Source: an uncultured Candidatus Saccharibacteria bacterium (GTDB lineage Bacteria; Patescibacteriota; Minisyncoccia; Phycocordibacterales; UBA9973). From it: a stretch of 64,000 nucleotides of DNA. The position numbers and the translations under genes were made by a program. Numbering within the stretch: the stretch's first letter is position 1; each line of letters opens with the position of its first letter. Below are positions 13,626 to 53,791 of the stretch, in pieces. Under the pieces are notes generated by a model, which saw only the letters and a list, made by a program, of their open reading frames with translations, had not been told where the DNA came from and searched no databases. Location: positions 3,697 through 67,696 of the forward strand of contig CAZKPK010000001.1 of NCBI GenBank assembly GCA_964554645.1, given 5' to 3'.

Positions 13626-14684
13626 ATGGATTATAAGAAAAAACTTGAAGAACTTATTTTGACCGTTATTCGCGAAAACGGATCGGACTTGCATTTAGGC
13701 ACTGGAAGAGTGCCAGTTATTCGCGTGTCGGGAGAATTGATATTTCTTGCCAAGCAACCAGTTTTTACAAAAGAAGATATGATTGGAATTTTGAGTGAAG
13801 TGTTGGAGAAAGCGAAAGTCCAGAAATTTATGGAAAGTCAGGAAGCCGATTTCTCTTATGATTTCCGCGGGGAAGCGCGGTTGCGCGGCAATGCTTTTTT
13901 TCAGAAAGGTCTAATCTGCGTGGTTTTTCGATTGGTGCCGAAAGTAAAGACTATCGCCGAATTGCATTTACCTGCCATTGTTGCAGATCTTGCCCGTAAA
14001 AAGCAAGGTTTTTTTCTAGTAGTTGGTCCCGTTGGGCAGGGCAAGTCGACCACTCTGGCCGCGATGGTGGATCTAATCAACAATGAAAAGGCGCGCAATA
14101 TCATAACAATTGAAGACCCGATTGAACATGTCTATGTGCCCAATAAATCCATCATCAGCCAGCGCGAAGTCGGTATTGACACCGCCGACTTTCATCTGGC
14201 GCTTAAATCGGCTTTCCGAGAGGATGTAAATGTAATAATGATAGGCGAAATGCGCACGCCAGAAACGATAGCGACTGCCGTAACTGCCGCCGAAACCGGA
14301 CACCTGGTGCTTTCCACTTTGCACACCAATAACGCTTCTCAGACCATAGACAGGATTATCGACTCTTTTCCGGGCAGTCAACAAGATCAAATTCGCTCCC
14401 AGCTTGCCGCCTCGCTGCTGGGTATTTTTTCTCAAAGGCTGATCCCTCGAATTACCGGCGGACTTATTCCCGCCTTTGAGCTTCTTTTAAATAATAGCGC
14501 CGTGTCAAATTTAATTCGGGAGAAACGCACGCATGAAATAGACGTGGTCATAGAAACAGGGATGGAATCCGGCATGATTGACTTGAACCATTCCTTGATG
14601 GAGCTGGTGCGCGCCGGAGAAATTACGATTGAGAACGCTTACCAGTATTCTCTCAATCCTAAGGGTTTGGAACGGATGATTTAA
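13626..14684 (+). CDS. pilT: twitching-motility retraction ATPase PilT
   Basis: Walker A GPVGQGKST, PilT-specific motifs, about 350 aa. Confidence 0.9.
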   Translation: MDYKKKLEELILTVIRENGSDLHLGTGRVPVIRVSGELIFLAKQPVFTKEDMIGILSEVLEKAKVQKFMESQEADFSYDFRGEARLRGNAFFQKGLICVVFRLVPKVKTIAELHLPAIVADLARKKQGFFLVVGPVGQGKSTTLAAMVDLINNEKARNIITIEDPIEHVYVPNKSIISQREVGIDTADFHLALKSAFREDVNVIMIGEMRTPETIATAVTAAETGHLVLSTLHTNNASQTIDRIIDSFPGSQQDQIRSQLAASLLGIFSQRLIPRITGGLIPAFELLLNNSAVSNLIREKRTHEIDVVIETGMESGMIDLNHSLMELVRAGEITIENAYQYSLNPKGLERMI

Positions 14685-14687
14685 AAA

Positions 14688-14735
14688 GACCACAGGTCAG
14701 ACCTGTGGGATTCCCATAGGTCTGACCTATGGAAC
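14688..14735. repeat. Family-B REP doublet (CCACAGGTCAGACCTGTGG plus CCCATAGGTCTGACCTATGG)
   Basis: two adjacent imperfect-copy palindromes between pilT stop and pilC start; second unit matches the REPs flanking the RAYT gene at about 34.1-34.8 kb. Confidence 0.8.
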
Positions 14736-14744
14736 AATAAAGAT

Positions 14745-15953
14745 ATGTTATTCAAATACAAAGCGGTAGATCCTGAGGGTTTAAATAAAGAAGGAGAGAT
14801 TGACGCAACCAATCGCGATCTGGCGATAAGCGGTTTGCAGAGAAGAGGGTTGGTGATTATTTCCATCCAAGATGAAACAGAGCGCAAGTCTATTTTTTCA
14901 GTTTCTTTTTTTGAAAAAGTTTCCAATAAAGATGTAGTTATTCTTTCCCGCCAGATCGCGACTTTATTTGAAGCGCAAGTTTCGGCGCTGAAAGCCTTTA
15001 CGATGCTGGCGGCCAACGCGGAAAATAAGCTTCTGGGCCGCAAGCTGACCGTTATTGGCGATGATCTTCAAGCGGGGGTTTCCATTTCCGGCGCATTGGC
15101 GAAGCATCCGGATGTATTTTCCAGTTTTTATGTGAATATGGTCAAAGTGGGCGAGGAAACCGGAAAACTTGATCAGACCTTTCTATACTTGGCGGAGTAT
15201 TTAGATCGCCAATATTCCCTTACTTCCAAGACCAGAAATGCGCTTATTTATCCGGTTTTTGTGATTATTACGTTTTTTGTGGTTATGACTCTGATGTTTG
15301 TTGTGGTGATTCCAAAACTCTCTTCAATTATCCTGGATTCAGGGCAAGCAATACCGGTTTATACAAAAATAGTCATCGCAATTTCCAATCTTTTTGTTCA
15401 CTATGGTTTCTTTGTTTTGATTTTTTTGGTCTTGCTGGGCATCTGGGTTTGGAGATTATCTTCTACGGAAAAAGGGAAAGCGTATCTTGATTCATTAAAA
15501 CTCTCTACGCCGGCTGTAGGTAATTTATACAGGAAGCTTTTTCTTTCCAGAATGACGGACAGTTTAAATACCATGATTTCTTCCGGTATTCCAATAGTTC
15601 GGGCGATAGATATTACGGCCGAAGTTGTCGGCAGTCGCGTCTACAGAGGACTTCTAGGAGAGGTAGCGGATGAAGTAAAATCCGGTCTGGCGCTCTCTGT
15701 GGCGCTGGCCAGACATAAAGAAGAAATACCCAGTATTTTGGTGCAGATGGTGCAGGTGGGGGAGGAAACTGGTTCATTGGGGGCTATTTTAAAAACCTTG
15801 ACCAATTTCTATAAGCGCGAAGTGGATGATGCGATTGATACGTTAGTGGGCCTGATAGAACCGGTAATGATCGTGGTTTTGGGTCTCGGAGTGGGCATAC
15901 TCCTAGTTTCCGTATTAGGGCCAATTTACAATATGGCTGGAGGAATCAGTTAG
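14745..15953 (+). CDS. pilC: type IV pilus inner-membrane platform protein PilC (GspF family)
   Basis: two T2SS-F domains, 3 TM segments, about 400 aa. Confidence 0.9.
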   Translation: MLFKYKAVDPEGLNKEGEIDATNRDLAISGLQRRGLVIISIQDETERKSIFSVSFFEKVSNKDVVILSRQIATLFEAQVSALKAFTMLAANAENKLLGRKLTVIGDDLQAGVSISGALAKHPDVFSSFYVNMVKVGEETGKLDQTFLYLAEYLDRQYSLTSKTRNALIYPVFVIITFFVVMTLMFVVVIPKLSSIILDSGQAIPVYTKIVIAISNLFVHYGFFVLIFLVLLGIWVWRLSSTEKGKAYLDSLKLSTPAVGNLYRKLFLSRMTDSLNTMISSGIPIVRAIDITAEVVGSRVYRGLLGEVADEVKSGLALSVALARHKEEIPSILVQMVQVGEETGSLGAILKTLTNFYKREVDDAIDTLVGLIEPVMIVVLGLGVGILLVSVLGPIYNMAGGIS

Positions 15954-18792: not shown

Positions 18793-19383
18793 ATGTTTAA
18801 GTTGAGTAAAAAAATAAAAAATAACAAAGGAATGACTTATATAGAACTTATTGTTGTTCTCTCTATTTTTGCCATTATGTCTTCCATTATTCTTTATAAT
18901 TATGGAGAATTTCAGGCAAAAGTGGATATCAAAAATTTAGCCAGCGATATCGCTTTGAAAATTGTTGAGGCGCAGAAGTCAGCGCTTTCTGGAAAATGGA
19001 CTTCTGGCGCGGTGGATGGTTGGAAACCATCTTATGGTATATATTTTAATACTTCCAGTGCTGATGAAAAAAAGAAGTTTACTTATTTTGCAGATTTTAA
19101 TAACGATAAAATATATAACGATACTCCGCTAGATACAATAAGTATTACAAAAGGCAATTATATAGAAAAAATAGAAAGTTGCGCAGGTTCTCCCACTATT
19201 TGCGCTTTGGTCACAAACTCCTTTTTGTCAATCATTTTTACAAGACCAAATTCTGGCGCAGTTTTTAGTTCCTTGAGTGGCATACTAACTGGTTTTGATT
19301 ATATTCAAATCACTATTTCCTCACCCCAAGGTAAAACAGCCTTAATAAAAATCTATCCTTCGGGGAGGATACAAGTAAATTAG
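18793..19383 (+). CDS. minor pilin / pseudopilin with class-III signal
   Basis: KGMTYIELIVVLSIFAIM N-terminus. Confidence 0.75.
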   Translation: MFKLSKKIKNNKGMTYIELIVVLSIFAIMSSIILYNYGEFQAKVDIKNLASDIALKIVEAQKSALSGKWTSGAVDGWKPSYGIYFNTSSADEKKKFTYFADFNNDKIYNDTPLDTISITKGNYIEKIESCAGSPTICALVTNSFLSIIFTRPNSGAVFSSLSGILTGFDYIQITISSPQGKTALIKIYPSGRIQVN

Positions 19384-20593: not shown

Positions 20594-23222
<2,629 letters not shown>

Positions 23223-29438: not shown

Positions 29439-31367
29439 ATGAAAATTTCTTATAATTGGCTCAAATGGTATATACCGGAAGCGCCTCCCGCAAACAAACT
29501 TGCGGATATTTTTAATTACCATATTTGCGAAGTGGAGAGTGTCCAACACCGAGTGTTGGACAAAGATAAAGATTGGATTTTTGATTTAAAAGTTTTGCCG
29601 AACCGCGCGCATGATTTACTTTCACATCAGGGAGTCGCTCGCGAGCTTGCTTCACTTTTAGATATCAAATATGTAGATCCCACGCCGAAATATAAAATTC
29701 CCGCCTCCGCCAAGGCTGCCCCCTTCGCTGAAGTGGCTACGAAGGCCAAGTCGGCGGGCAAGCCGGAATTAAAAATTGATGTTCAAACGCCTTTATGCAG
29801 GCGATATATGGGCAGAATTATAAGGGGAATAAAAATCGGTCCCAGTCCGGAGTGGATGGTGAAGCATTTAGAATCAATAGGACAGAGAAGTATAAATAAT
29901 ATTGTAGATGCCGCCAATATTGTAATGTTTGATTGCGGACAGCCGACTCATGCTTTTGATCTGGATAAAATGAATAGCAAGATAATAGTGCGCGAGGCAG
30001 AAAATGACGAAGACATAACCACTTTAGATAATCAGGGAATAAAATTAAAAAGTTCAAATATGGTGATTGTAGATTCTAAAAATATTTTAGCGATTGCCGG
30101 AATAAAAGGCGGGAAGATTGCGGAAGTGGACAATAATACAAAAAATATAATTCTTGAGGTTGCTAATTTTGATCCGGTTTCGGTGCGGAAAACAGCTCAA
30201 GCCTTTAATCTATTTACCGACGCGCGAAAGAGGTTTGAAAATGACCTGTCGCCAGAATTGGCACCATATGCCATGCGCGAACTCTCGGCTCTCATTTTTG
30301 AAATGTGTCCGGACGCTATTTTTGAAGATGTTGTGGATGTTTACCCCCACACCAATGATATTGGTGTGGGGGTTTATCCTGAAAAACAAAAGGAGAAAAA
30401 ACTTTCTTTTTCGGCTGAAAGAATTTCAAAAATTTTAGGACTCAAAGTTTCAGTTAAAGAAATAGAAAATATTTTGCAGAGATATAATTTTAGGTATAAA
30501 GAAAATAAAGGGAAATTTGAGGTTGTTGTGCCACCGATGCGTCTTGATTTAGCAATAGAAGAAGATATGGCGGAAGAGATAGGTAGAATTCTGGGATATG
30601 ATAAAGTAAAACCACAAATTCCCCACATGTCTGACATGTGGGAACCACAGGTTAATGAGATTTATGCAAAAATTTCCTGGGTCAGAAATAAATTATTGGC
30701 TGATGGATATTCCGAAGTGATGACTTATACTTTTCGAGAAAAGGGAGAAATAGAAGTGCAAAATAGCGCTTCCGATAAAAAGTTTTTGCGAACGAATTTA
30801 ACTGATGGATTGAAAGAAAGCGTTAAATTAAATCACGCCAATGCCCCGCTGTTAGGAATTGACGAAATTAAAGTTTTTGAAATTGGAACTGTTTTCAAAA
30901 AAGATAAAGAGCAGATAAATATTTGTTTTAGTGACAAAAAAAATATCACAGAAGTTTCTTTAAATGATTTTTGTAAAGATATGCTTTCTAGTGATTCTCC
31001 TCTTGAGGAGTACCCTTTAGGGGGAGGTGGAAAATTTATCCACCCCGTCGCAAGCGCCACCCCTCAAGAGGGGAATAGATTCAAGATGTGGTCTTTGTTT
31101 CCTTTCATTGCGCGCGATATCGCTGTCTTTGTGCCGGAAAAAATTAAGAGTTTGGAAATAGAAAAAATAATAAAAAAGAATATGGGAAATATGGTGATTC
31201 GAGGTCCGGAACTTTTTGATGAATTCAAAAAAGGCAATCAGATTTCTTATGCCTTCAGATTGGTTTTTCAATCTTACGATCGGACACTGACAGACGCAGA
31301 AGTGAATGAAATTATGGATAAAATAACTGACAAAATTAAGAAGAATAAAGGTTGGCAAGTAAGGTAA
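29439..31367 (+). CDS. pheT: phenylalanine--tRNA ligase beta subunit with in-frame Family-A repeat insertion
   Basis: B3/4, B5 and FDX-ACB-like domains. Residues ..SPLEEYPLGGGGKFIHPVASATPQEGN.. are encoded by the repeat at 30997-31078. Confidence 0.9.
   Translation: MKISYNWLKWYIPEAPPANKLADIFNYHICEVESVQHRVLDKDKDWIFDLKVLPNRAHDLLSHQGVARELASLLDIKYVDPTPKYKIPASAKAAPFAEVATKAKSAGKPELKIDVQTPLCRRYMGRIIRGIKIGPSPEWMVKHLESIGQRSINNIVDAANIVMFDCGQPTHAFDLDKMNSKIIVREAENDEDITTLDNQGIKLKSSNMVIVDSKNILAIAGIKGGKIAEVDNNTKNIILEVANFDPVSVRKTAQAFNLFTDARKRFENDLSPELAPYAMRELSALIFEMCPDAIFEDVVDVYPHTNDIGVGVYPEKQKEKKLSFSAERISKILGLKVSVKEIENILQRYNFRYKENKGKFEVVVPPMRLDLAIEEDMAEEIGRILGYDKVKPQIPHMSDMWEPQVNEIYAKISWVRNKLLADGYSEVMTYTFREKGEIEVQNSASDKKFLRTNLTDGLKESVKLNHANAPLLGIDEIKVFEIGTVFKKDKEQINICFSDKKNITEVSLNDFCKDMLSSDSPLEEYPLGGGGKFIHPVASATPQEGNRFKMWSLFPFIARDIAVFVPEKIKSLEIEKIIKKNMGNMVIRGPELFDEFKKGNQISYAFRLVFQSYDRTLTDAEVNEIMDKITDKIKKNKGWQVR
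30997..31078. repeat. Family-A composite repeat (degenerate inverted unit plus forward unit) inside pheT, in-frame
   Basis: CTCCTCTTGAGGAGTAC..GGAGGTGGA followed by ATCCACCCCGTCGCAAGCGCCACCCCTCAAGAGGGGAAT; same composite arrangement as 15961-16077. Confidence 0.85.
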
Positions 31368-33507: not shown

Positions 33508-34095
33508 ATGAAAAAATTAATCTTAGCTTCAAGTTCAAGCACAAGGAAAAATTTGCTTACAGAAGCCGGCTTGAATTTTGAAATTGATCCAAGTAGTTAC
33601 GAAGAAGATATAACATTATTAATGTCTCCAAAAGAATTAGTGGCTCATTTATCTTACGGTAAAGCAAAAGATGTAGCATCGAGGCACCAAGAAGCCATAG
33701 TTCTAGGAGCTGATACAATTATTGTCTATCAAGATAAAATTCTCGGTAAACCTCATACATCGGAAAGAGCTAAAGAAATGTTAAAAATGTTAAGTGGTAG
33801 GGCACACTTAGTTGTTACTGGTTTTACAATAATTGATACGAAAAATAATCATAGCATCTCCAAAGTTGTAGAAACAGAAGTGTTTTTCAAAAATCTCACA
33901 GATAGAGAAATAGATAATTATGTAGCTACCGGTGAACCACTGAATAAAGCAGGGGCTTATGCAATTTTAGAGAATGGTGGCAAATTTGTTAAAAAGATCG
34001 AAGGAAGTAGAACAAATGTGTCAGGTTTACCCATGGAGGAGTTAATGAATGTTCTAAAAAATTCCCATAGGTCAGACCTATGGGATGTGTTATAA
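33508..34095 (+). CDS. maf: Maf-like nucleoside-triphosphate pyrophosphatase; C-terminus encoded by a REP element
   Basis: KLILASSSSTRKNLL...GKP...; final residues ..NSHRSDLWDVL are a translation of REP copy B2. Confidence 0.85.
   Translation: MKKLILASSSSTRKNLLTEAGLNFEIDPSSYEEDITLLMSPKELVAHLSYGKAKDVASRHQEAIVLGADTIIVYQDKILGKPHTSERAKEMLKMLSGRAHLVVTGFTIIDTKNNHSISKVVETEVFFKNLTDREIDNYVATGEPLNKAGAYAILENGGKFVKKIEGSRTNVSGLPMEELMNVLKNSHRSDLWDVL
34063..34086. repeat. Family-B REP (TTCCCATAGGTCAGACCTATGGGATG)
   Basis: perfect palindrome; 5' flank of RAYT gene and 3' end of maf. Confidence 0.85.
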
Positions 34096-34102
34096 TAGCA
34101 GT

Positions 34103-34780
34103 ATGAGTCTCAGAGATTCGAATTTAGTGGAAAAAGAGTATTATCATATTTACAATCGCGGTAATGGAAAAAATAAAATTTTTAATTCCATAGAAGATTA
34201 CGATCGTTTTTGTAAACTTCTTTTTATTTGTAATTCTGAAAGAAGTTTTACATTCAGAGATTCAGTCGTAGATCAAAAAATTGATGCCTGGGATTTTGAA
34301 AGGGGAGAACCGCTTGTGGAAATATGTGCATGGGTTTTAATGCCTAATCATTTCCATATAATTTTAATTTCCCATAGGTCGGACCTATGGGATGAGAAGT
34401 ATAATCCAATAACGGAATTTATGAGAAAACTTTCTACGGCTTACGCTATGTATTTTAATAAGAAATATAACCGCACTGGATCTCTTTTTGAAGGAAAGTT
34501 TAAGTCTAAACATATTAGCAAAGATAATTATTTCCATTATTTATTTTCTTACATTCATCTTAATCCAATTAAATTAATCCAACCAGATTGGAAAGAAAAT
34601 GGTATCAAGAATAAAAAAGAAGCGATTGCTTATCTTATGAATTTTAAATATTCAAGTTTTCAAGATTTTTATGGTGTCTCTAGAAAAGAAGGAAAGATAA
34701 TAAATAAGAATTCGTTACCAGAAGATTTTAAATACAATCATGTTGAGGAACTTTTTGAATGGATAACTGATTCCCCATAG
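34103..34780 (+). CDS. REP-associated tyrosine transposase (RAYT; IS200/IS605-like Y1 HuH transposase)
   Basis: HIYNRG motif, HuH motif (PNHFHIIL), catalytic Tyr region (YIHLNP); flanked by, and interrupted in-frame by, Family-B REPs; stop codon TAG lies inside REP B4. Confidence 0.8.
   Translation: MSLRDSNLVEKEYYHIYNRGNGKNKIFNSIEDYDRFCKLLFICNSERSFTFRDSVVDQKIDAWDFERGEPLVEICAWVLMPNHFHIILISHRSDLWDEKYNPITEFMRKLSTAYAMYFNKKYNRTGSLFEGKFKSKHISKDNYFHYLFSYIHLNPIKLIQPDWKENGIKNKKEAIAYLMNFKYSSFQDFYGVSRKEGKIINKNSLPEDFKYNHVEELFEWITDSP
34369..34394. repeat. Family-B REP inserted in-frame inside the RAYT gene (encodes SHRSDLWD)
   Basis: TCCCATAGGTCGGACCTATGGGATG immediately after the HuH motif codons. Confidence 0.85.
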
Positions 34781-34799
34781 GTCAGACCTATGGGGAATC
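34769..34799. repeat. Family-B REP, extended perfect palindrome (GATTCCCCATAGGTC-a-GACCTATGGGGAATC)
   Basis: 15-bp arms; overlaps RAYT stop codon. Confidence 0.85.
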
Positions 34800-34834
34800 A
34801 CTTCTTGAAATTCTCAAAAAAGAAAGGAAATAAA

Positions 34835-35521
34835 TTATTTCTTGTTTATAGTTTCTAACTTTTCTCCTTTCCAGAATTCATATAGCGGTGAAATAAACAT
34901 TCCTGTCACAAAGAACCAGACCAAATCTTCAACTGGAATATTTAAAAGCATTATGCCAGAAATATTTTTATGTATCCAAAAATTTATCGCTGTCGGGTCG
35001 AAAGAGAAAATTATATAATAAATAGGTATAGAAATTAAGGTAATGATCACTCCACTCGTTAAAGACAGGATGATTAAATCTTTTCTGTAAAAATAAATTA
35101 CTAGCGTTGGAATTAACATTGTAAATAATGATGAATAGAAAGAGTGTATATTTATATAGAAAAATGTAAAATTTCCAATGAATGTTGACAACAATATCAC
35201 AATTATAAAATGTTTTAGATGAGTATTCTTTTTTCCACGAATTTTAACTAATTTATCCTTAAAGATTTCTTCATATATTGAAACTATTATTCCTCCGACA
35301 AAGAAACCAAAAAGAATATCTTCTATACCCACAATTGTTCCTGTTATGGTGGTAGGTTTCCACCAATCCTTTGTCCAGATAAAAGCTTCCATAAAAGTAG
35401 CCACTATGGCAACTAGACTACCCATCAATAATATTTCTTTTCTAAGATCTTTACGATATATATACAGAATCAACCAAACCGGAAAATACATTAAAACTCC
35501 AATTAAATATGTTGAATTCAT
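34835..35521 (-). CDS. hypothetical polytopic membrane protein
   Basis: about 7 hydrophobic segments; start overlaps thrS stop (operonic). Confidence 0.4.
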   Translation of the reverse strand: MNSTYLIGVLMYFPVWLILYIYRKDLRKEILLMGSLVAIVATFMEAFIWTKDWWKPTTITGTIVGIEDILFGFFVGGIIVSIYEEIFKDKLVKIRGKKNTHLKHFIIVILLSTFIGNFTFFYINIHSFYSSLFTMLIPTLVIYFYRKDLIILSLTSGVIITLISIPIYYIIFSFDPTAINFWIHKNISGIMLLNIPVEDLVWFFVTGMFISPLYEFWKGEKLETINKK

Positions 35522-45801: not shown

Positions 45802-45874
45802 TTTGCTTTTTTCAGCCAGAAGCTATAATCTAGCAAGATAGTGCTTAAAGCACTATCTTGAAGAACTTAATTTT

Positions 45875-50119: not shown

Positions 50120-53100
50120 ATGAAAACTTTAAACACAACTGAATTTAATTCGATCGCCCTACGGCTTGCGTCTCCGGAACAAATCAAGGAGTGGTCATTC
50201 GGGGAAGTGACGAAGCCCGAGACGATAAATTATCGCACTGGCCGATCCGAACGTGGAGGTCTCTTTGATGAAAAAATATTTGGACCGGAAAAAGATTACG
50301 AATGTTATTGCGGAAAATACCGCCGGATTCGTTATAAAGACATCATTTGCGAGAAATGCGGAGTGGAAGTTACCCGTTCGATAGTGCGCCGAGAGCGAAT
50401 GGGACACATCGAGCTTGGAACTCCCGTCTCGCATATTTGGTTTCTGCGCGGGGTGCCTTCTCGGATGAGCATTCTGCTTAATATATCCGTGACGGATCTG
50501 GAAAAGGTAATATATTTTGCCGGATATATAATTACTAAAGTTCACGAGGATGAGAAAGAAGCTGTTATTGCCAATTTAGATAAGGAATACAAATCTAAAT
50601 TAAAAAATGCGACCGATGATGATACTCGAGAAAAATTGAAAAATCTGCTTTCTATTACCAAGAAAGAAATTGGGGAAATTTATGAAGGGAAAGTTCTGAA
50701 TGAAATTTCTTTTCATCACTATTCTTTGAAATACGGAACTTGTTTTGAGGCCAATATAGGCGCTGAAGCTATTTATTCCATTTTTAAAAATTTAGATTTA
50801 GATAAATTAAAGACCCATACCGAAAAGATGATCGAAAAAGCCAGCGTGGCTGAAAAAGAGAAATTACAGAAAAGGCTTTCTCTTATTCGCGCTATGACCT
50901 ATGCCGGAATTCGTCCGGAATGGATGTTTTTGACCGTTTTTCCAGTTATTCCTCCTGTCTTGCGCCCGATGGTCGCTTTAGATGGAGGTCGGCACGCGAC
51001 TTCCGACTTGAATGATCTTTATCGTCGAGTTATTAATCGAAACAATCGCTTGAAGAAGTTGAAAGAAATCAATGCGCCGGATGTAATTTTGCGAAATGAA
51101 AAAAGAATTATTCAAGAAGCGGTTGATGCGCTGATCGATAATTCAATTGCCAAACAGAATGATTCTGCCGCCATGAGTCAGTCTCAAAAGCGTCCCCTAA
51201 AATCGCTGTCAGACAATTTAAAATCAAAACAAGGTCTTTTCCGCCAAAATTTGCTTGGAAAAAGAGTAGATTATTCAGGACGTTCAGTGATTGTCGTTGG
51301 TCCCGAGCTTAAGCTTAATCAATGCGGATTGCCAAAACACATGGCGCTGGAACTTTTTAGGCCATTTGTAATTTCCAAAATCTTGCAAGCGGAATTGGCG
51401 TTTAATATTCGCGGGGCAAACAAGCTGATAGAAGAACGAGGGGGGGAAGTCTGGGCAATGCTGGAAGAGGTTATTGCCGGAAAATACGTTCTCTTGAACC
51501 GCGCGCCGACCCTCCATCGTTTAGGTATCCAAGCTTTTAATCCGATTTTAATCGAGGGAAATGCTATTCAAGTTCACCCTCTTGTCTGCCAAGCTTTCAA
51601 CGCTGACTTTGATGGAGACCAAATGGCAGTCTATGTTCCTTTGCTTGAAGAAGCGCAATGGGAGGCAAAAGAGTTCATGGCTTCGAACAAGAATTTACTA
51701 AAACCCCAAAATGGCGATCCGATCGTGCATCCGCGCATGGATATGGTGCTTGGAAGTTTTTGGATGACGAAATCAATAGAAGGAGAAGTGGGTGAAGGCA
51801 AGTATTTTTCTAGGCCCAACACCGCCGTCACGGCCTATGATTATGGGATTATTTCTATGCGGGCCAAAATAAAAGTTCTTCCAATGGATAAACCCAAGTA
51901 TAAGAAATTTAATGGAGAAATTTTTGAAACGACCGTCGGCAGAATCATATTCAATAGTATTTTGCCGGATGATTTTCACTATGTAAATGATGAAATGACT
52001 CAAGATAGGTTGTCTTCTCTCTTGGATGAATTGATTATGCACTCGGGAGTTGAAAATATTCCCCATATTTTGGATACAATTAAAGCTTTTGGTTTTAAAT
52101 ATTCTACTATCTCCGGCACCACTTGGGGGTTGGATAATGTTTCTGTGTCTTCCGAGAAACCGAAAATTATAGCCGAAGGCAAGAAACTTGAAAAAGAAAT
52201 AATCTCCCAGTGGCAGGAAGGTCTTTTATCTGAGGAAGAAAAATATCAAAAAGTTATTGAAGTTTGGACGCATATGAAGAAAAATTTGGAAAAAGTTTTA
52301 CCCAAGACGGTTGACAAACACAGTTCCACTTACGATATATTTACTTCTAAAGCCAGAGGCACGATGAGTTCTTTGATGCAGATGACTGGAATGATCGGGC
52401 TGATTCAAAATAACCAAGGCAAAACCCTGGAATTTCCGATTATCCCTTGCTATCAAGAAGGGCTTTCCCCAATTGAATATTTCGTTATTACTCATGGCGC
52501 TCGCAAAGGCGCTTCCGATACCGCGTTAAATACCGCCAAAGCTGGATATCTAACTCGCAGATTGGTTGATGTGGCGCAGGATGTGGTTATCACTGAAGTA
52601 GATTGCGGAACCAAAGAGGGCAGGATAGTTACCAAAGAAAATATTTCTGGAATTGAAATTCCGCTTTCAAAAAATATCCGCGGGCGGGTATTGGCGGGAG
52701 ATCTTAAAAACAAAAATGGCAAGGTAGTTTATAAAAAAGGGTTTTTAGTCACGAAAGAGGAGGCCTACAATATTGAAGGAGCAGGTTTTACGGAAGTATT
52801 TGTCCGTTCTCCTTTAACCTGCCGCACTGTTCATGGTCTGTGTGTCATGTGTTATGGACTTGACTTAGGACGAAATCGTTTAGTGGAGCTTGGCGAAGCG
52901 GTCGGCATTATCGCGGCTCAGGCCATCGGAGAACCGGGAACTCAGCTTACGCTTCGCACCTTTCACGCTGGGGGCGTTGCCGGCACTGATATTACCACCG
53001 GTCTTCCGCGTGTCGAAGAAATATTTGAAAGGAGAATTCCTAAAAATCCGGCCATTATTTCTGAAACCGATGGTGAAGTGATCGAAATAAAAATAAAAGA

Positions 53101-53791
53101 TCCCGCCTCTGGCGGGACAGGTGTAAAATCTGCTCACTCCCGCGATATTTCAGGATCCGGCGGGGAAAAAATAATCAAAGTGCTTTCAGATCTGGAAGAT
53201 AGTAAGGCGGGGGCTAAAAACGAAATAGAATATCTTGTTCCGTTTCACAGAATGCCTACCGTTAAAGCAGGTGATCACATAAAGAAAGGGGATCTCCTAA
53301 CTGACGGGTCAGCGGATATTGCTGAAATGTTTAAATTTGGCAACAAGGAATTAGTCGAAAATTATATAATTCGGGAAATAAACAAAGTTTATGAATTGCA
53401 AAGCGCTTCAATTTCCAGAAAGCATACGGAAATAATTATCCGCCAAATGTTTTCGCGCCGAAAAATAAAAGACGCGGGCGACACTAATTTTTCCATCGGC
53501 GATATTGTTGAGAATACCGCATTTATAGAAGAAAATCAGAGAGTTGCGCGCTTGGCGGTTAAACCGCCAAGCGCGCTTGGCGGTTTAACCGCCAAAGCAG
53601 AAACAGTGGTGCTTGGTATCACGGAAGTGTCGCTTCGCACTAAAAGTTGGCTCTCGGCGGCTTCGTTCCAAAACACCAATCGCGTTCTTATTGAAAACGC
53701 GGTCAAGGGCGGGGTAGATTCTTTGAGAGGGTTAAAAGAGAATGTTATAATCGGTAGGTTAATTCCGGCTGGAACTGGATTTAAAAAATAA
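50120..53791 (+). CDS. rpoC: DNA-directed RNA polymerase beta' subunit, with in-frame Family-C repeat near the C-terminus
   Basis: Zn-binding CxxC..CxxC, NADFDGD catalytic motif, trigger loop, C-terminal VIVGRLIPAGTG; residues RLAVKPPSALGGLTAKAE encoded by repeat 53547-53598. Confidence 0.97.
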   Translation: MKTLNTTEFNSIALRLASPEQIKEWSFGEVTKPETINYRTGRSERGGLFDEKIFGPEKDYECYCGKYRRIRYKDIICEKCGVEVTRSIVRRERMGHIELGTPVSHIWFLRGVPSRMSILLNISVTDLEKVIYFAGYIITKVHEDEKEAVIANLDKEYKSKLKNATDDDTREKLKNLLSITKKEIGEIYEGKVLNEISFHHYSLKYGTCFEANIGAEAIYSIFKNLDLDKLKTHTEKMIEKASVAEKEKLQKRLSLIRAMTYAGIRPEWMFLTVFPVIPPVLRPMVALDGGRHATSDLNDLYRRVINRNNRLKKLKEINAPDVILRNEKRIIQEAVDALIDNSIAKQNDSAAMSQSQKRPLKSLSDNLKSKQGLFRQNLLGKRVDYSGRSVIVVGPELKLNQCGLPKHMALELFRPFVISKILQAELAFNIRGANKLIEERGGEVWAMLEEVIAGKYVLLNRAPTLHRLGIQAFNPILIEGNAIQVHPLVCQAFNADFDGDQMAVYVPLLEEAQWEAKEFMASNKNLLKPQNGDPIVHPRMDMVLGSFWMTKSIEGEVGEGKYFSRPNTAVTAYDYGIISMRAKIKVLPMDKPKYKKFNGEIFETTVGRIIFNSILPDDFHYVNDEMTQDRLSSLLDELIMHSGVENIPHILDTIKAFGFKYSTISGTTWGLDNVSVSSEKPKIIAEGKKLEKEIISQWQEGLLSEEEKYQKVIEVWTHMKKNLEKVLPKTVDKHSSTYDIFTSKARGTMSSLMQMTGMIGLIQNNQGKTLEFPIIPCYQEGLSPIEYFVITHGARKGASDTALNTAKAGYLTRRLVDVAQDVVITEVDCGTKEGRIVTKENISGIEIPLSKNIRGRVLAGDLKNKNGKVVYKKGFLVTKEEAYNIEGAGFTEVFVRSPLTCRTVHGLCVMCYGLDLGRNRLVELGEAVGIIAAQAIGEPGTQLTLRTFHAGGVAGTDITTGLPRVEEIFERRIPKNPAIISETDGEVIEIKIKDPASGGTGVKSAHSRDISGSGGEKIIKVLSDLEDSKAGAKNEIEYLVPFHRMPTVKAGDHIKKGDLLTDGSADIAEMFKFGNKELVENYIIREINKVYELQSASISRKHTEIIIRQMFSRRKIKDAGDTNFSIGDIVENTAFIEENQRVARLAVKPPSALGGLTAKAETVVLGITEVSLRTKSWLSAASFQNTNRVLIENAVKGGVDSLRGLKENVIIGRLIPAGTGFKK
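53102..53118. repeat. GC-rich hairpin TCCCGCC-TCT-GGCGGGA inside rpoC
   Basis: perfect 7-3-7 palindrome in otherwise AT-rich coding sequence; a second related GGCGGGG at 53153-53163; similar CCCGCC...GGCGGGC pair in pheT at 29701-29759. Confidence 0.4.
53547..53598. repeat. Family-C palindromic repeat (GCGCGCTTGGCGGTTAAACCGCCAAGCGCGC plus TTGGCGGTTTAACCGCCAA) in-frame inside rpoC
   Basis: 31-nt perfect palindrome followed by second unit; same core as ligA copy. Confidence 0.85.

Follow-up and report, generated by a model that had tools for sequence, protein, structure and literature searches.

The subject of this report is a short palindromic repeat and its putative cognate enzyme in a 64,000-nucleotide stretch of an uncultured Patescibacteria genome (contig CAZKPK010000001.1, positions 3,697 to 67,696 of the forward strand; hereafter the window). 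The window carries a single gene resembling those of the REP-associated tyrosine transposases (RAYTs), with copies of one repetitive extragenic palindrome (REP) at its 5' flank, across its stop codon and inside its open reading frame (ORF). This arrangement is probably a domesticated RAYT/REP unit ('REPtron'), passed down vertically in a Paceibacteria/Nomurabacteria-like lineage, in which the internal palindrome has been kept in concert with the flanking ones. The evidence comprises the layout of the unit, an insert that is old and arose once, the compensatory conservation of its DNA, the concerted change of palindromes at a syntenic site, and intact enzyme motifs under purifying selection. 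The unit consists of the following features.

34063 to 34085, no strand: 5' REP copy, TCCCATAGGTC-A-GACCTATGGGA, a perfect palindrome with 11-bp arms
34085 to 34780, plus strand: RAYT-like Y1 HuH gene, 231 amino acids from the first ATG
34349 to 34357, plus strand: HuH motif of the RAYT-like gene (H-F-H, residues 89-91)
34370 to 34392, no strand: internal REP copy, TCCCATAGGTC-G-GACCTATGGGA, perfect, with 11-bp arms, in frame
34550 to 34552, plus strand: catalytic-type tyrosine of the RAYT-like gene, Y156 of YIHLNP
34768 to 34800, no strand: 3' REP copy, TGATTCCCCATAGGTC-A-GACCTATGGGGAATCA, perfect, with 16-bp arms

An earlier note on this DNA had described palindromes at the 5' flank of the gene, within it after the HuH motif and at its 3' end, and a pattern search combined with a perfect-palindrome scan located all three. 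The pattern CCATAGGTCNGACCTATGG matches five positions in the window (14690, 14714, 34065, 34372 and 34775), the first of them a two-mismatch variant, CCACAGGTC.., and it appeared in none of 100 dinucleotide-preserving shuffles of the sequence (0/100; chance expectation 0). The window is AT-rich (G+C 31-45%). As single-stranded DNA the three gene-associated copies fold with -9.4 to -15.7 kcal/mol (z = -4.4 to -7.8), the 3' copy having -15.7 kcal/mol and z -7.8. The REP is symmetric except for a single central base, which is A, G and A in the 5', internal and 3' copies. The 5' copy ends at the first ATG of the RAYT-like ORF and encodes the tail of the upstream Maf protein (NSHRSDLWDVL*), beyond the Pfam Maf domain, which stops at residue 195 of 205, and the attribution of Maf's last residues (HRSDLWDVL) to the repeat is borne out by translation; a terminator-type scan also flagged this copy as terminator-like for the upstream gene. 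Translation of 34085-34780 agrees likewise with the addition of SHRSDLWD in frame by the internal palindrome, which encodes S96-H-R-S-D-L-W-D103 straight after the HuH beta-strand (..NHFHIILI-SHRSDLWD-EKYNP..). The TAG stop (34778-34780) is supplied by the 3' copy, whose overlap with the stop and perfection were as described, but whose arms measure 16 bp rather than 15.

The insert is widespread among relatives. From 80 genomic loci of GTDB species representatives, 83 Patescibacteria genes were aligned (tblastn and MAFFT; loci and contigs are designated below by L numbers), and a neighbour-joining tree computed without the insert columns splits them cleanly into a monophyletic group of 56 with the insert and 27 without. 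Between HFHxxx and the ISKFMQKL helix the 27 sister genes have 7 residues, as against 11-24 in the 56 (one has 7); the eight residues that the earlier note took for an insertion are thus an extra segment relative to the sister clade, directly after HFHxxx, the stretch up to the next helix being 13-14 residues long instead of 7. A perfect GC-containing palindrome lies at this site in 46 of the 56 insert-clade genes, compared with 0/27 in the sister clade, and the 46 internal hairpins have stems of 8-15 bp (mean 10.6 bp; 486 Watson-Crick pairs) and loops of 1-5 nt. Among the remaining ten, eight retain near-palindromic remnants, and L024 and L037 have lost the palindrome. The insert has one site and one reading frame throughout the 56 genes, to as low as about 50% identity. 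Because all internal copies of the GTC-N-GAC type share one reading frame (..S-D..), while the same REP uses two frames in other genes, the simplest history would be a single insertion in the ancestor of the insert clade. The internal copy is ancient, and neither private to this genome nor recent.

The protein itself is a remote RAYT-like Y1 HuH enzyme and no equivalog of REP_Tyr_transpos. Its translation holds EYYHIYNRGN, LMPNHFHIIL and SYIHLNP; the true start is likely the ATG at 34103, giving 225 amino acids with the N-terminus MSLRD, as most homologues begin at the residue aligned with M7. The Pfam model Y1_Tnp (PF01797) matches with E 5e-4 and 20.6 bits, under its gathering cut-off of 23, precomputed PF01797 matches exist for some close homologues, and NCBIfam NF047646 REP_Tyr_transpos gives 45.8 bits (E 5.5e-12), under its equivalog cut-off of 80. 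An AlphaFold (AF2) model built with 24 homologues (pLDDT 72, pTM 0.76) has as its best fold match in the PDB 4er8_A (E 1.4e-5, TM-target 0.64), the Escherichia coli TnpA-REP with bound REP hairpin (Messing 2012, PMC3479197), followed by the TnpA proteins of IS608, ISDra2 and IS200. With the HuH and Tyr motifs and this fold match, the identification as a RAYT-like Y1 HuH gene holds although the curated cut-offs are missed; we write 'RAYT-like', and do not assign the protein to the curated family, because both the curated score and the GTAG/CGTC tag of classical REPs failed. In the model the REP-encoded peptide forms a short helix, residues 99-104, which is preceded by strand 90-96 and followed by helix 108-127. 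The family is very large, with over 7,800 proteins in the database related at E <= 1e-5, the named ones from Patescibacteria, Parcubacteria, Nomurabacteria or Paceibacterota.

The alignment with the 24 homologues (64-87% identity) has 74 columns without any variation, HuH and Y156 of YIHLNP among them; the conserved catalytic-type Tyr, whose lack the earlier note had named as a refutation, is kept in 24/24. The dN/dS of the gene is 0.08-0.12 with dS of 0.8-2.5, indicating strong purifying selection with synonymous sites near saturation. Since selection is purifying and the HuH and Tyr residues are retained, the enzyme is probably intact and active. The earlier note had raised the question of an inactivating interruption, and the extra sequence does lie beside the catalytic HuH, relative to both the sister clade and classical RAYTs. 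That it is a recent disruptive REP insertion in an inactive or decaying enzyme is nonetheless scarcely credible: the ORF is intact, 56 genes, reaching to about 50% identity, have the segment at this one site, and neither the invariant HuH and Y156 columns nor the dN/dS values fit decay.

What is conserved at the insert is the palindromic DNA, while the encoded peptide is free to vary. The insert peptides include SHRSDLW, SPRSDLG, SHKSDLW, SPRTVLGE, SPRQGLGE, SPKPGLGE, SPTPGVGE, SPIPGIGE, NPGDQVTG, NAEARLPQ, KTEALLPS and others, each of those listed being encoded by a perfect palindrome of its own. We draw this distinction because of codon usage and synonymous covariation in the 19 genes with an S[HP][RK]SDL[WG] insert, the rest of those genes serving as reference. 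The Asp codon of the insert is GAC in 19/19 (13% elsewhere in these genes) and the Arg codon AGG in 15/15 (20% elsewhere). The third base of the Leu codon always complements that of the His or Pro codon (CAT/CTA, CAT/TTA, CAC/TTG, CCA/CTT), all four bases (A, C, G and T) are seen at the unpaired centre, and the change from His to Pro is coupled with that from Trp to Gly, amounting to a base-pair swap. In L008 two simultaneous double changes leave the palindrome perfect and the peptide reading SPRTVLGE. A functional peptide motif SHRSDLW, with the other palindromes as fragments or by-products, might be read from the invariance of R98, S99, D100 and L101 in the 24 closest homologues, but conservation at the protein level is exceedingly improbable given that across the clade the peptide changes (SPRTVLGE, NAEARLPQ, NPGDQVTG and so on) with the DNA still a perfect palindrome, that the codons chosen are the rare ones in 100% of cases, the loop base being free, and that other genes read the same DNA in another frame.

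The internal palindrome also matches the flanking copies of its own gene. With a match defined as a 7-nt arm core shared with a palindrome no more than 150 nt from the gene's own start or stop, the internal core equals the gene's own flanking core in 38/46 genes (34 match on the 5' side and 28 on the 3' side, with 24 matching on both), whereas cores match in 3.9% of pairs between loci; there are 29 distinct internal cores. The two flanks share a core in 36/56 insert-clade and 16/27 sister-clade genes, the sister-clade genes having 5' and 3' copies only. Among relatives with asymmetric loops, those of the sister clade mostly have 5' TCTTG/CTT and 3' CAAGA/AAG, that is, inverted copies, whereas in the insert clade the 3' copy is variable. 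This matching bears on the possibility that the insert was selected purely as a hairpin in the mRNA, serving as an attenuator, a ribosome pause or a site for RNase and having no connection with the DNA specificity of the enzyme. A stable GC-rich stem in an AT-rich ORF would slow translation or block nucleases, and REPs have been reported as translation impediments and nuclease barriers in E. coli; any hairpin would serve such a role, however, yet 38/46 match their own flanking palindromes. The stems are moreover strictly Watson-Crick, and no excess of G:T was found at the first non-paired stem position of the 46 internal hairpins (10/46, the chance level), so that nothing there points specifically to selection at the RNA level. 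We therefore regard a hairpin acting in RNA alone as unlikely.

The concerted change can be followed at one chromosomal position. In the subclade of the window gene, at least 10 loci (the window, L002, L004, L007-L010, L087, L088 and L109) have gyrB on one side of the RAYT-like gene and thrS on the other, so that these genes are orthologues at a fixed chromosomal site. These gyrB..thrS orthologues are 60-87% identical, yet the palindrome type varies between the loci: CCCATAGGTC, CCCCTAGGTC, ACATAGGTC, CCCCTAGG-loop, GCCTAGGAC and CCCTAGGC-AAG are all found. Further types with enzymes of their own are CCTAAGTC and GGAAGC-AAG-GCTTCC. The pattern at this locus is best read as vertical inheritance with palindrome change in situ. 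The window has one copy of the gene; paralogues in other genomes are divergent, each with its own palindrome type. An autonomous IS200-like insertion sequence (IS), whose left and right end hairpins would be the 5' and 3' palindromes, could account for the Y1 fold, the additional matches to IS608 and ISDra2 TnpA, the subterminal hairpins at both ends and the presence of several copies in some genomes (one metagenome-assembled genome, for instance, has L007, L017, L034 and L044). It is nevertheless very unlikely, as the gyrB..thrS position is kept among these orthologues, the paralogues within a genome are divergent with a palindrome type each, near-identical copies were not seen, and the palindrome also occurs alone, away from any such gene.

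A putative promoter element adjoins the 5' palindrome, as follows.

34088 to 34096, plus strand: extended -10-like box, TGTTATAAT, 6 nt 5' of the ATG at 34103

About 19 of the 20 relatives compared (62-87% identity) have a TATAAT-like hexamer 6-7 nt before the start codon that aligns with M7, as seen in the window at 34088-34105 and in the aligned parts of L001-L009 and L083-L109, and the maf stop codon (34093-34095) falls within the box. The 5' palindrome sits just 5' of it, where a -35 element would be. A simple sigma-70 -35/-10 scan did not call TGTTATAAT, for want of a -35 match; because such a scan needs that match, conservation is what identifies the putative promoter. These positions suggest a leaderless mRNA, a 225-residue product and a 5' palindrome over the -35 region. 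An Rfam scan of 33900-34900 gave sub-threshold chance matches only, and the hairpins are therefore unexplained by known RNA families.

Beyond the gene, the palindrome is dispersed. The earlier note had listed a REP doublet between pilT and pilC, and it is indeed present between the T2SSE and T2SSF genes, with 0 expected by chance.

14690 to 14732, no strand: REP doublet, CCACAGGTCAGACCTGTGG and CCATAGGTCTGACCTATGG, in the 60-nt spacer between a pilT-like and a pilC-like gene

Its neighbours are the stop of the T2SSE ATPase gene (pilT-like, 13626-14684) and the start of the T2SSF protein gene (pilC-like, 14745-15953), and it folds into one long hairpin of -18.2 kcal/mol. The possibility that the palindrome occurs only at the four sites of the earlier note holds literally within the 64 kb but fails outside them: an exact 23-mer of the repeat was found on 30 contigs in a metagenome scan. 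Thirteen of these have a RAYT-like gene, usually accompanied by three copies that show the window's spacing of about 310 and 405 nt; the other 17 have none, and the palindrome is therefore a dispersed repeat. When dispersed it commonly takes a 27-nt form, TTTCCCATAGGTC-N-GACCTATGGGAAA, fully symmetric (53 copies aligned); the 27-mer form of the window REP is TTTCCCATAGGTCNGACCTATGGGAAA, with TCCCATAGGTCNGACCTATGGGA as the putative single-stranded hairpin. Cognate copies away from the genes are rare: the window has 2, and the 80 genome loci, 1.23 Mb in all, have 17, most of these being intergenic. One metagenome contig (L088, 1047-1823) has a frameshifted RAYT-like pseudogene with all three palindromes still perfect.

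Many copies lie inside other genes. Twelve solitary REP copies are in frame within recognisable genes, which were named from sequence motifs: those for MiaA, MnmA (2 contigs), RNase HII (4), LigA (2), an XerC/D-like recombinase and TsaD. The contigs with the window REP in housekeeping genes are L084, L089, L101, L090, L092, L099, L102, L091, L104, L096 and L082. The 27-nt unit equals 9 codons; two of its frames are open, giving SHRSDLWE and FPIGxTYGK within genes, and the third holds a TAG. At the orthologous site of MnmA, L040 (about 19219-19251) has AGCCCTAAGTCGGACTTAGGGCT (SPKSDLG), L089 (about 1518) and L101 (about 720) have TTCCCATAGGTCNGACCTATGGGAA (SHRSDLWE), and the distant orthologues L064 and L068 are without a palindrome; this suggests that the REP type changed in situ within a housekeeping gene. 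In LigA the REP positions differ between the window and L091/L104.

Other palindrome families of the window behave similarly in their placement. The LigA ORF (21045-23222) has four GC-rich perfect in-frame palindromes (21353-21375, 21533-21555, 21763-21804), of family A, ACTTGGCGGTT(T/A)AACCGCCAAGT (one single and a doublet), and of the kind CCCTCCCCTTAATAAGGGGAGGG; at least one lies within the adenylation domain of this NAD-dependent DNA ligase. The RpoC ORF (50120-53791) has an in-frame family-A doublet, GCGCGCTTGGCGGTTAAACCGCCAAGCGCGC and TTGGCGGTTTAACCGCCAA, at 53546-53595, which reads ..ARLAVKPPSALGGLTAKAE.. near the C-terminus of the beta' subunit. In the PheT ORF (29439-31367) there are three different in-frame perfect palindromes, at 29540-29562, 30343-30373 and 30622-30642; the last, CCCACATGTCTGACATGTGGG (PHMSDMWE), is the REP type flanking the RAYT genes of L014, L016 and L020, and no RAYT gene with this type is present in the window. 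Yet another family, with the core AGATAGTGC(N)3-5GCACTATCT, occurs at 45834-45860, apparently intergenic, and in the unrelated loci L006 (20604-20644), L012 (7591-7617) and L029 (10084-10131). Individual REP copies often have additional mutually complementary outer arms that are copy-specific, for example AAAGAGTTTCCC..GGGAAACTCTTT (such copies include L085 at 1605, L090 at 1284, L103 at 5969 and L107 at 3041), and it looks as if each palindrome had been symmetrised or extended locally.

We propose that the product of the gene is an intact Y1 HuH single-strand DNA nuclease/transferase, as predicted, and that its cognate substrate would be the hairpin of the symmetric 23-27-nt palindrome (TT)TCCCATAGGTC-N-GACCTATGGGA(AA), situated over the promoter region, across the stop codon and, in small numbers, at other places, some between genes and some in frame within them. 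One copy would have entered the ORF of the enzyme in the clade ancestor, in a permissive segment after the HuH strand, and would have been kept since then as a perfect DNA palindrome changing in concert with both flanking copies. A cis-preferring enzyme may recognise and process the three gene-linked copies like any REP, so keeping them matched, and the internal and promoter-proximal copies may give it a handle on its own expression, through negative feedback or attenuation. The internal copy could thus be a cis substrate, a feedback operator or a homogenised passenger. With modest confidence we prefer a cis substrate or operator for self-regulation and copy matching to a passenger, because the internal copy has been retained at one site across saturated divergence, while the LigA REP positions vary.

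A neutral passenger has a considerable chance of being the correct answer, if somewhat short of an even one. The internal copy would then be functionless, lodged in a peptide-tolerant loop and kept by quasi-palindrome correction (intra-strand template switching) together with enzyme-mediated or recombinational conversion of all REPs. Such an origin would agree with the highly variable peptides, with copy-specific symmetric outer arms such as GGCAGTTTCCC..GGGAAACTGCC, with the many in-frame palindromes in other genes, with the switch of type in the orthologous MnmA REP (TTCCCATAGGTC.. in L089/L101, AGCCCTAAGTCGGACTTAGGGCT in L040), and with an internal copy that has decayed or gone in about 10 of the 56 lineages although their flanks stayed intact. 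It is harder to reconcile with retention at one site across a clade with saturated synonymous sites, the LigA REPs of the window and of L091/L104 being by contrast in different positions, and it leaves unexplained why the gene-associated copies in particular match, unless cis-preference is added. A fuller version of the cis-element reading, in which the in-ORF palindrome is functional and the enzyme reads the hairpins of its own gene and promoter, sets its dosage, keeps the three gene-linked copies as 'masters' of the family and rewrites palindromes genome-wide, is offered tentatively, as a possibility to which we attach limited weight. If true, it would mean enzyme-driven rewriting at fixed positions, including those in essential genes such as MnmA, and co-evolution of the repeat family, the specificity of the enzyme and short stretches of host proteins.

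Several observations weigh against the reading of this unit as a REPtron whose internal copy is maintained. No conserved asymmetric tag or target motif, including a 5' GTAG/CGTC, was found in the 53 aligned REP copies, and the window REP is without the asymmetry of classical REPs. These number more than 100 per genome, and the density of cognate copies off the gene in the loci covered seems far under that abundance. The copy-specific symmetric extensions of the arms suggest that purely mutational symmetrising contributes. Neither with Pfam Y1_Tnp nor with NCBIfam REP_Tyr_transpos does the protein reach the curated cut-off, and no solved Y1 transposase was found among PDB chains by sequence, whether with the single protein or with a family profile. 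Finally, in about 10/56 lineages the internal copy is decayed or lost while the flanks are still perfect; it is therefore dispensable, and the idea of feedback is weakened.

The clade described here bears on how REPs are copied, kept homogeneous and matched to their RAYTs; to our knowledge, demonstrations of RAYT activity have been confined to work in vitro on a handful of enzymes from Proteobacteria. It amounts to a natural experiment at one syntenic locus, with three palindromes, one of them constrained by frame, at least 29 types switched in concert and an enzyme under purifying selection, and the clade supplies testable pairs of enzyme variants and cognate hairpins. It also presents a candidate autoregulatory layout, with a REP over the promoter of a leaderless mRNA and another in the ORF, and an example of how REPs reside largely within genes where intergenic space is almost nil. 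As short inserts like SHRSDLWE are repeat-encoded, annotation and protein alignments of Patescibacteria are affected. REP-flanked RAYT genes, REPs over the ends of RAYT genes and in-frame intragenic REPs or Rickettsia palindromic elements (RPEs) have already been described (PMC2817692, PMC3333891, PMC3733652, PMC5581495). The literature searched, the coverage of which was incomplete, yielded no account of a REP located within a RAYT ORF, or of REP/RAYT systems in Patescibacteria, so that an earlier description is possible.

The closest known systems are the REPtrons, RAYT/TnpA-REP genes flanked by REPs (Nunvar 2010, PMC2817692; Ton-Hoang 2012, PMC3333891; Messing 2012, PMC3479197; Bertels 2017, PMC5581495). 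Shared with them are the Y1 HuH fold, including the HuH motif and a single catalytic-type Tyr, the palindrome on both flanks of the gene and dispersed in the genome, the single syntenic, vertically inherited copy under purifying selection, and the coexistence in one genome of divergent paralogues with their own REP types; the two flanking copies of the sister clade, usually inverted to judge by asymmetric loops, are the classical REPtron arrangement. Unlike REPtrons, this unit has a third cognate copy within its ORF, conserved in the clade, a perfectly symmetric REP without the GTAG/CGTC tag and at apparently low copy number, and an enzyme with about 70 extra C-terminal residues that stays below the curated RAYT and Y1_Tnp thresholds. 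With the TnpA proteins of the IS200/IS605 family, to which the fold matches 2a6o, 2vjv and 2xm3 belong, it shares the Y1 HuH fold, those enzymes recognising subterminal DNA hairpins; in IS200, stem-loops near the 5' end limit tnpA expression. The unit differs from these elements in that, judging by its syntenic position, it is no autonomous mobile element, and in that it has a hairpin inside the coding sequence that is identical to a dispersed repeat.

In-frame intragenic repeats form the remaining comparison, namely the RPEs and the GTAG/CGTC REPs in genes of Opitutus terrae, Thauera and others (Di Nocera 2013, PMC3733652). Like them, the palindromes described here are short, lie in frame in functional genes, often of DNA or RNA metabolism, and add short peptides: as an RPE-like element this REP is found in the genes for RAYT, Maf, MiaA, MnmA, RNase HII, LigA, the XerC/D-like recombinase and TsaD, and the window's other palindrome families are found similarly in those for LigA, PheT and RpoC. 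No case comparable to the internal copy was found in that study (PMC3733652). Unlike the RPEs and intragenic REPs, the internal palindrome has as its host gene that of the putative mobilising enzyme itself, at a site fixed over deep divergence, and it co-varies with the copies on its flanks.

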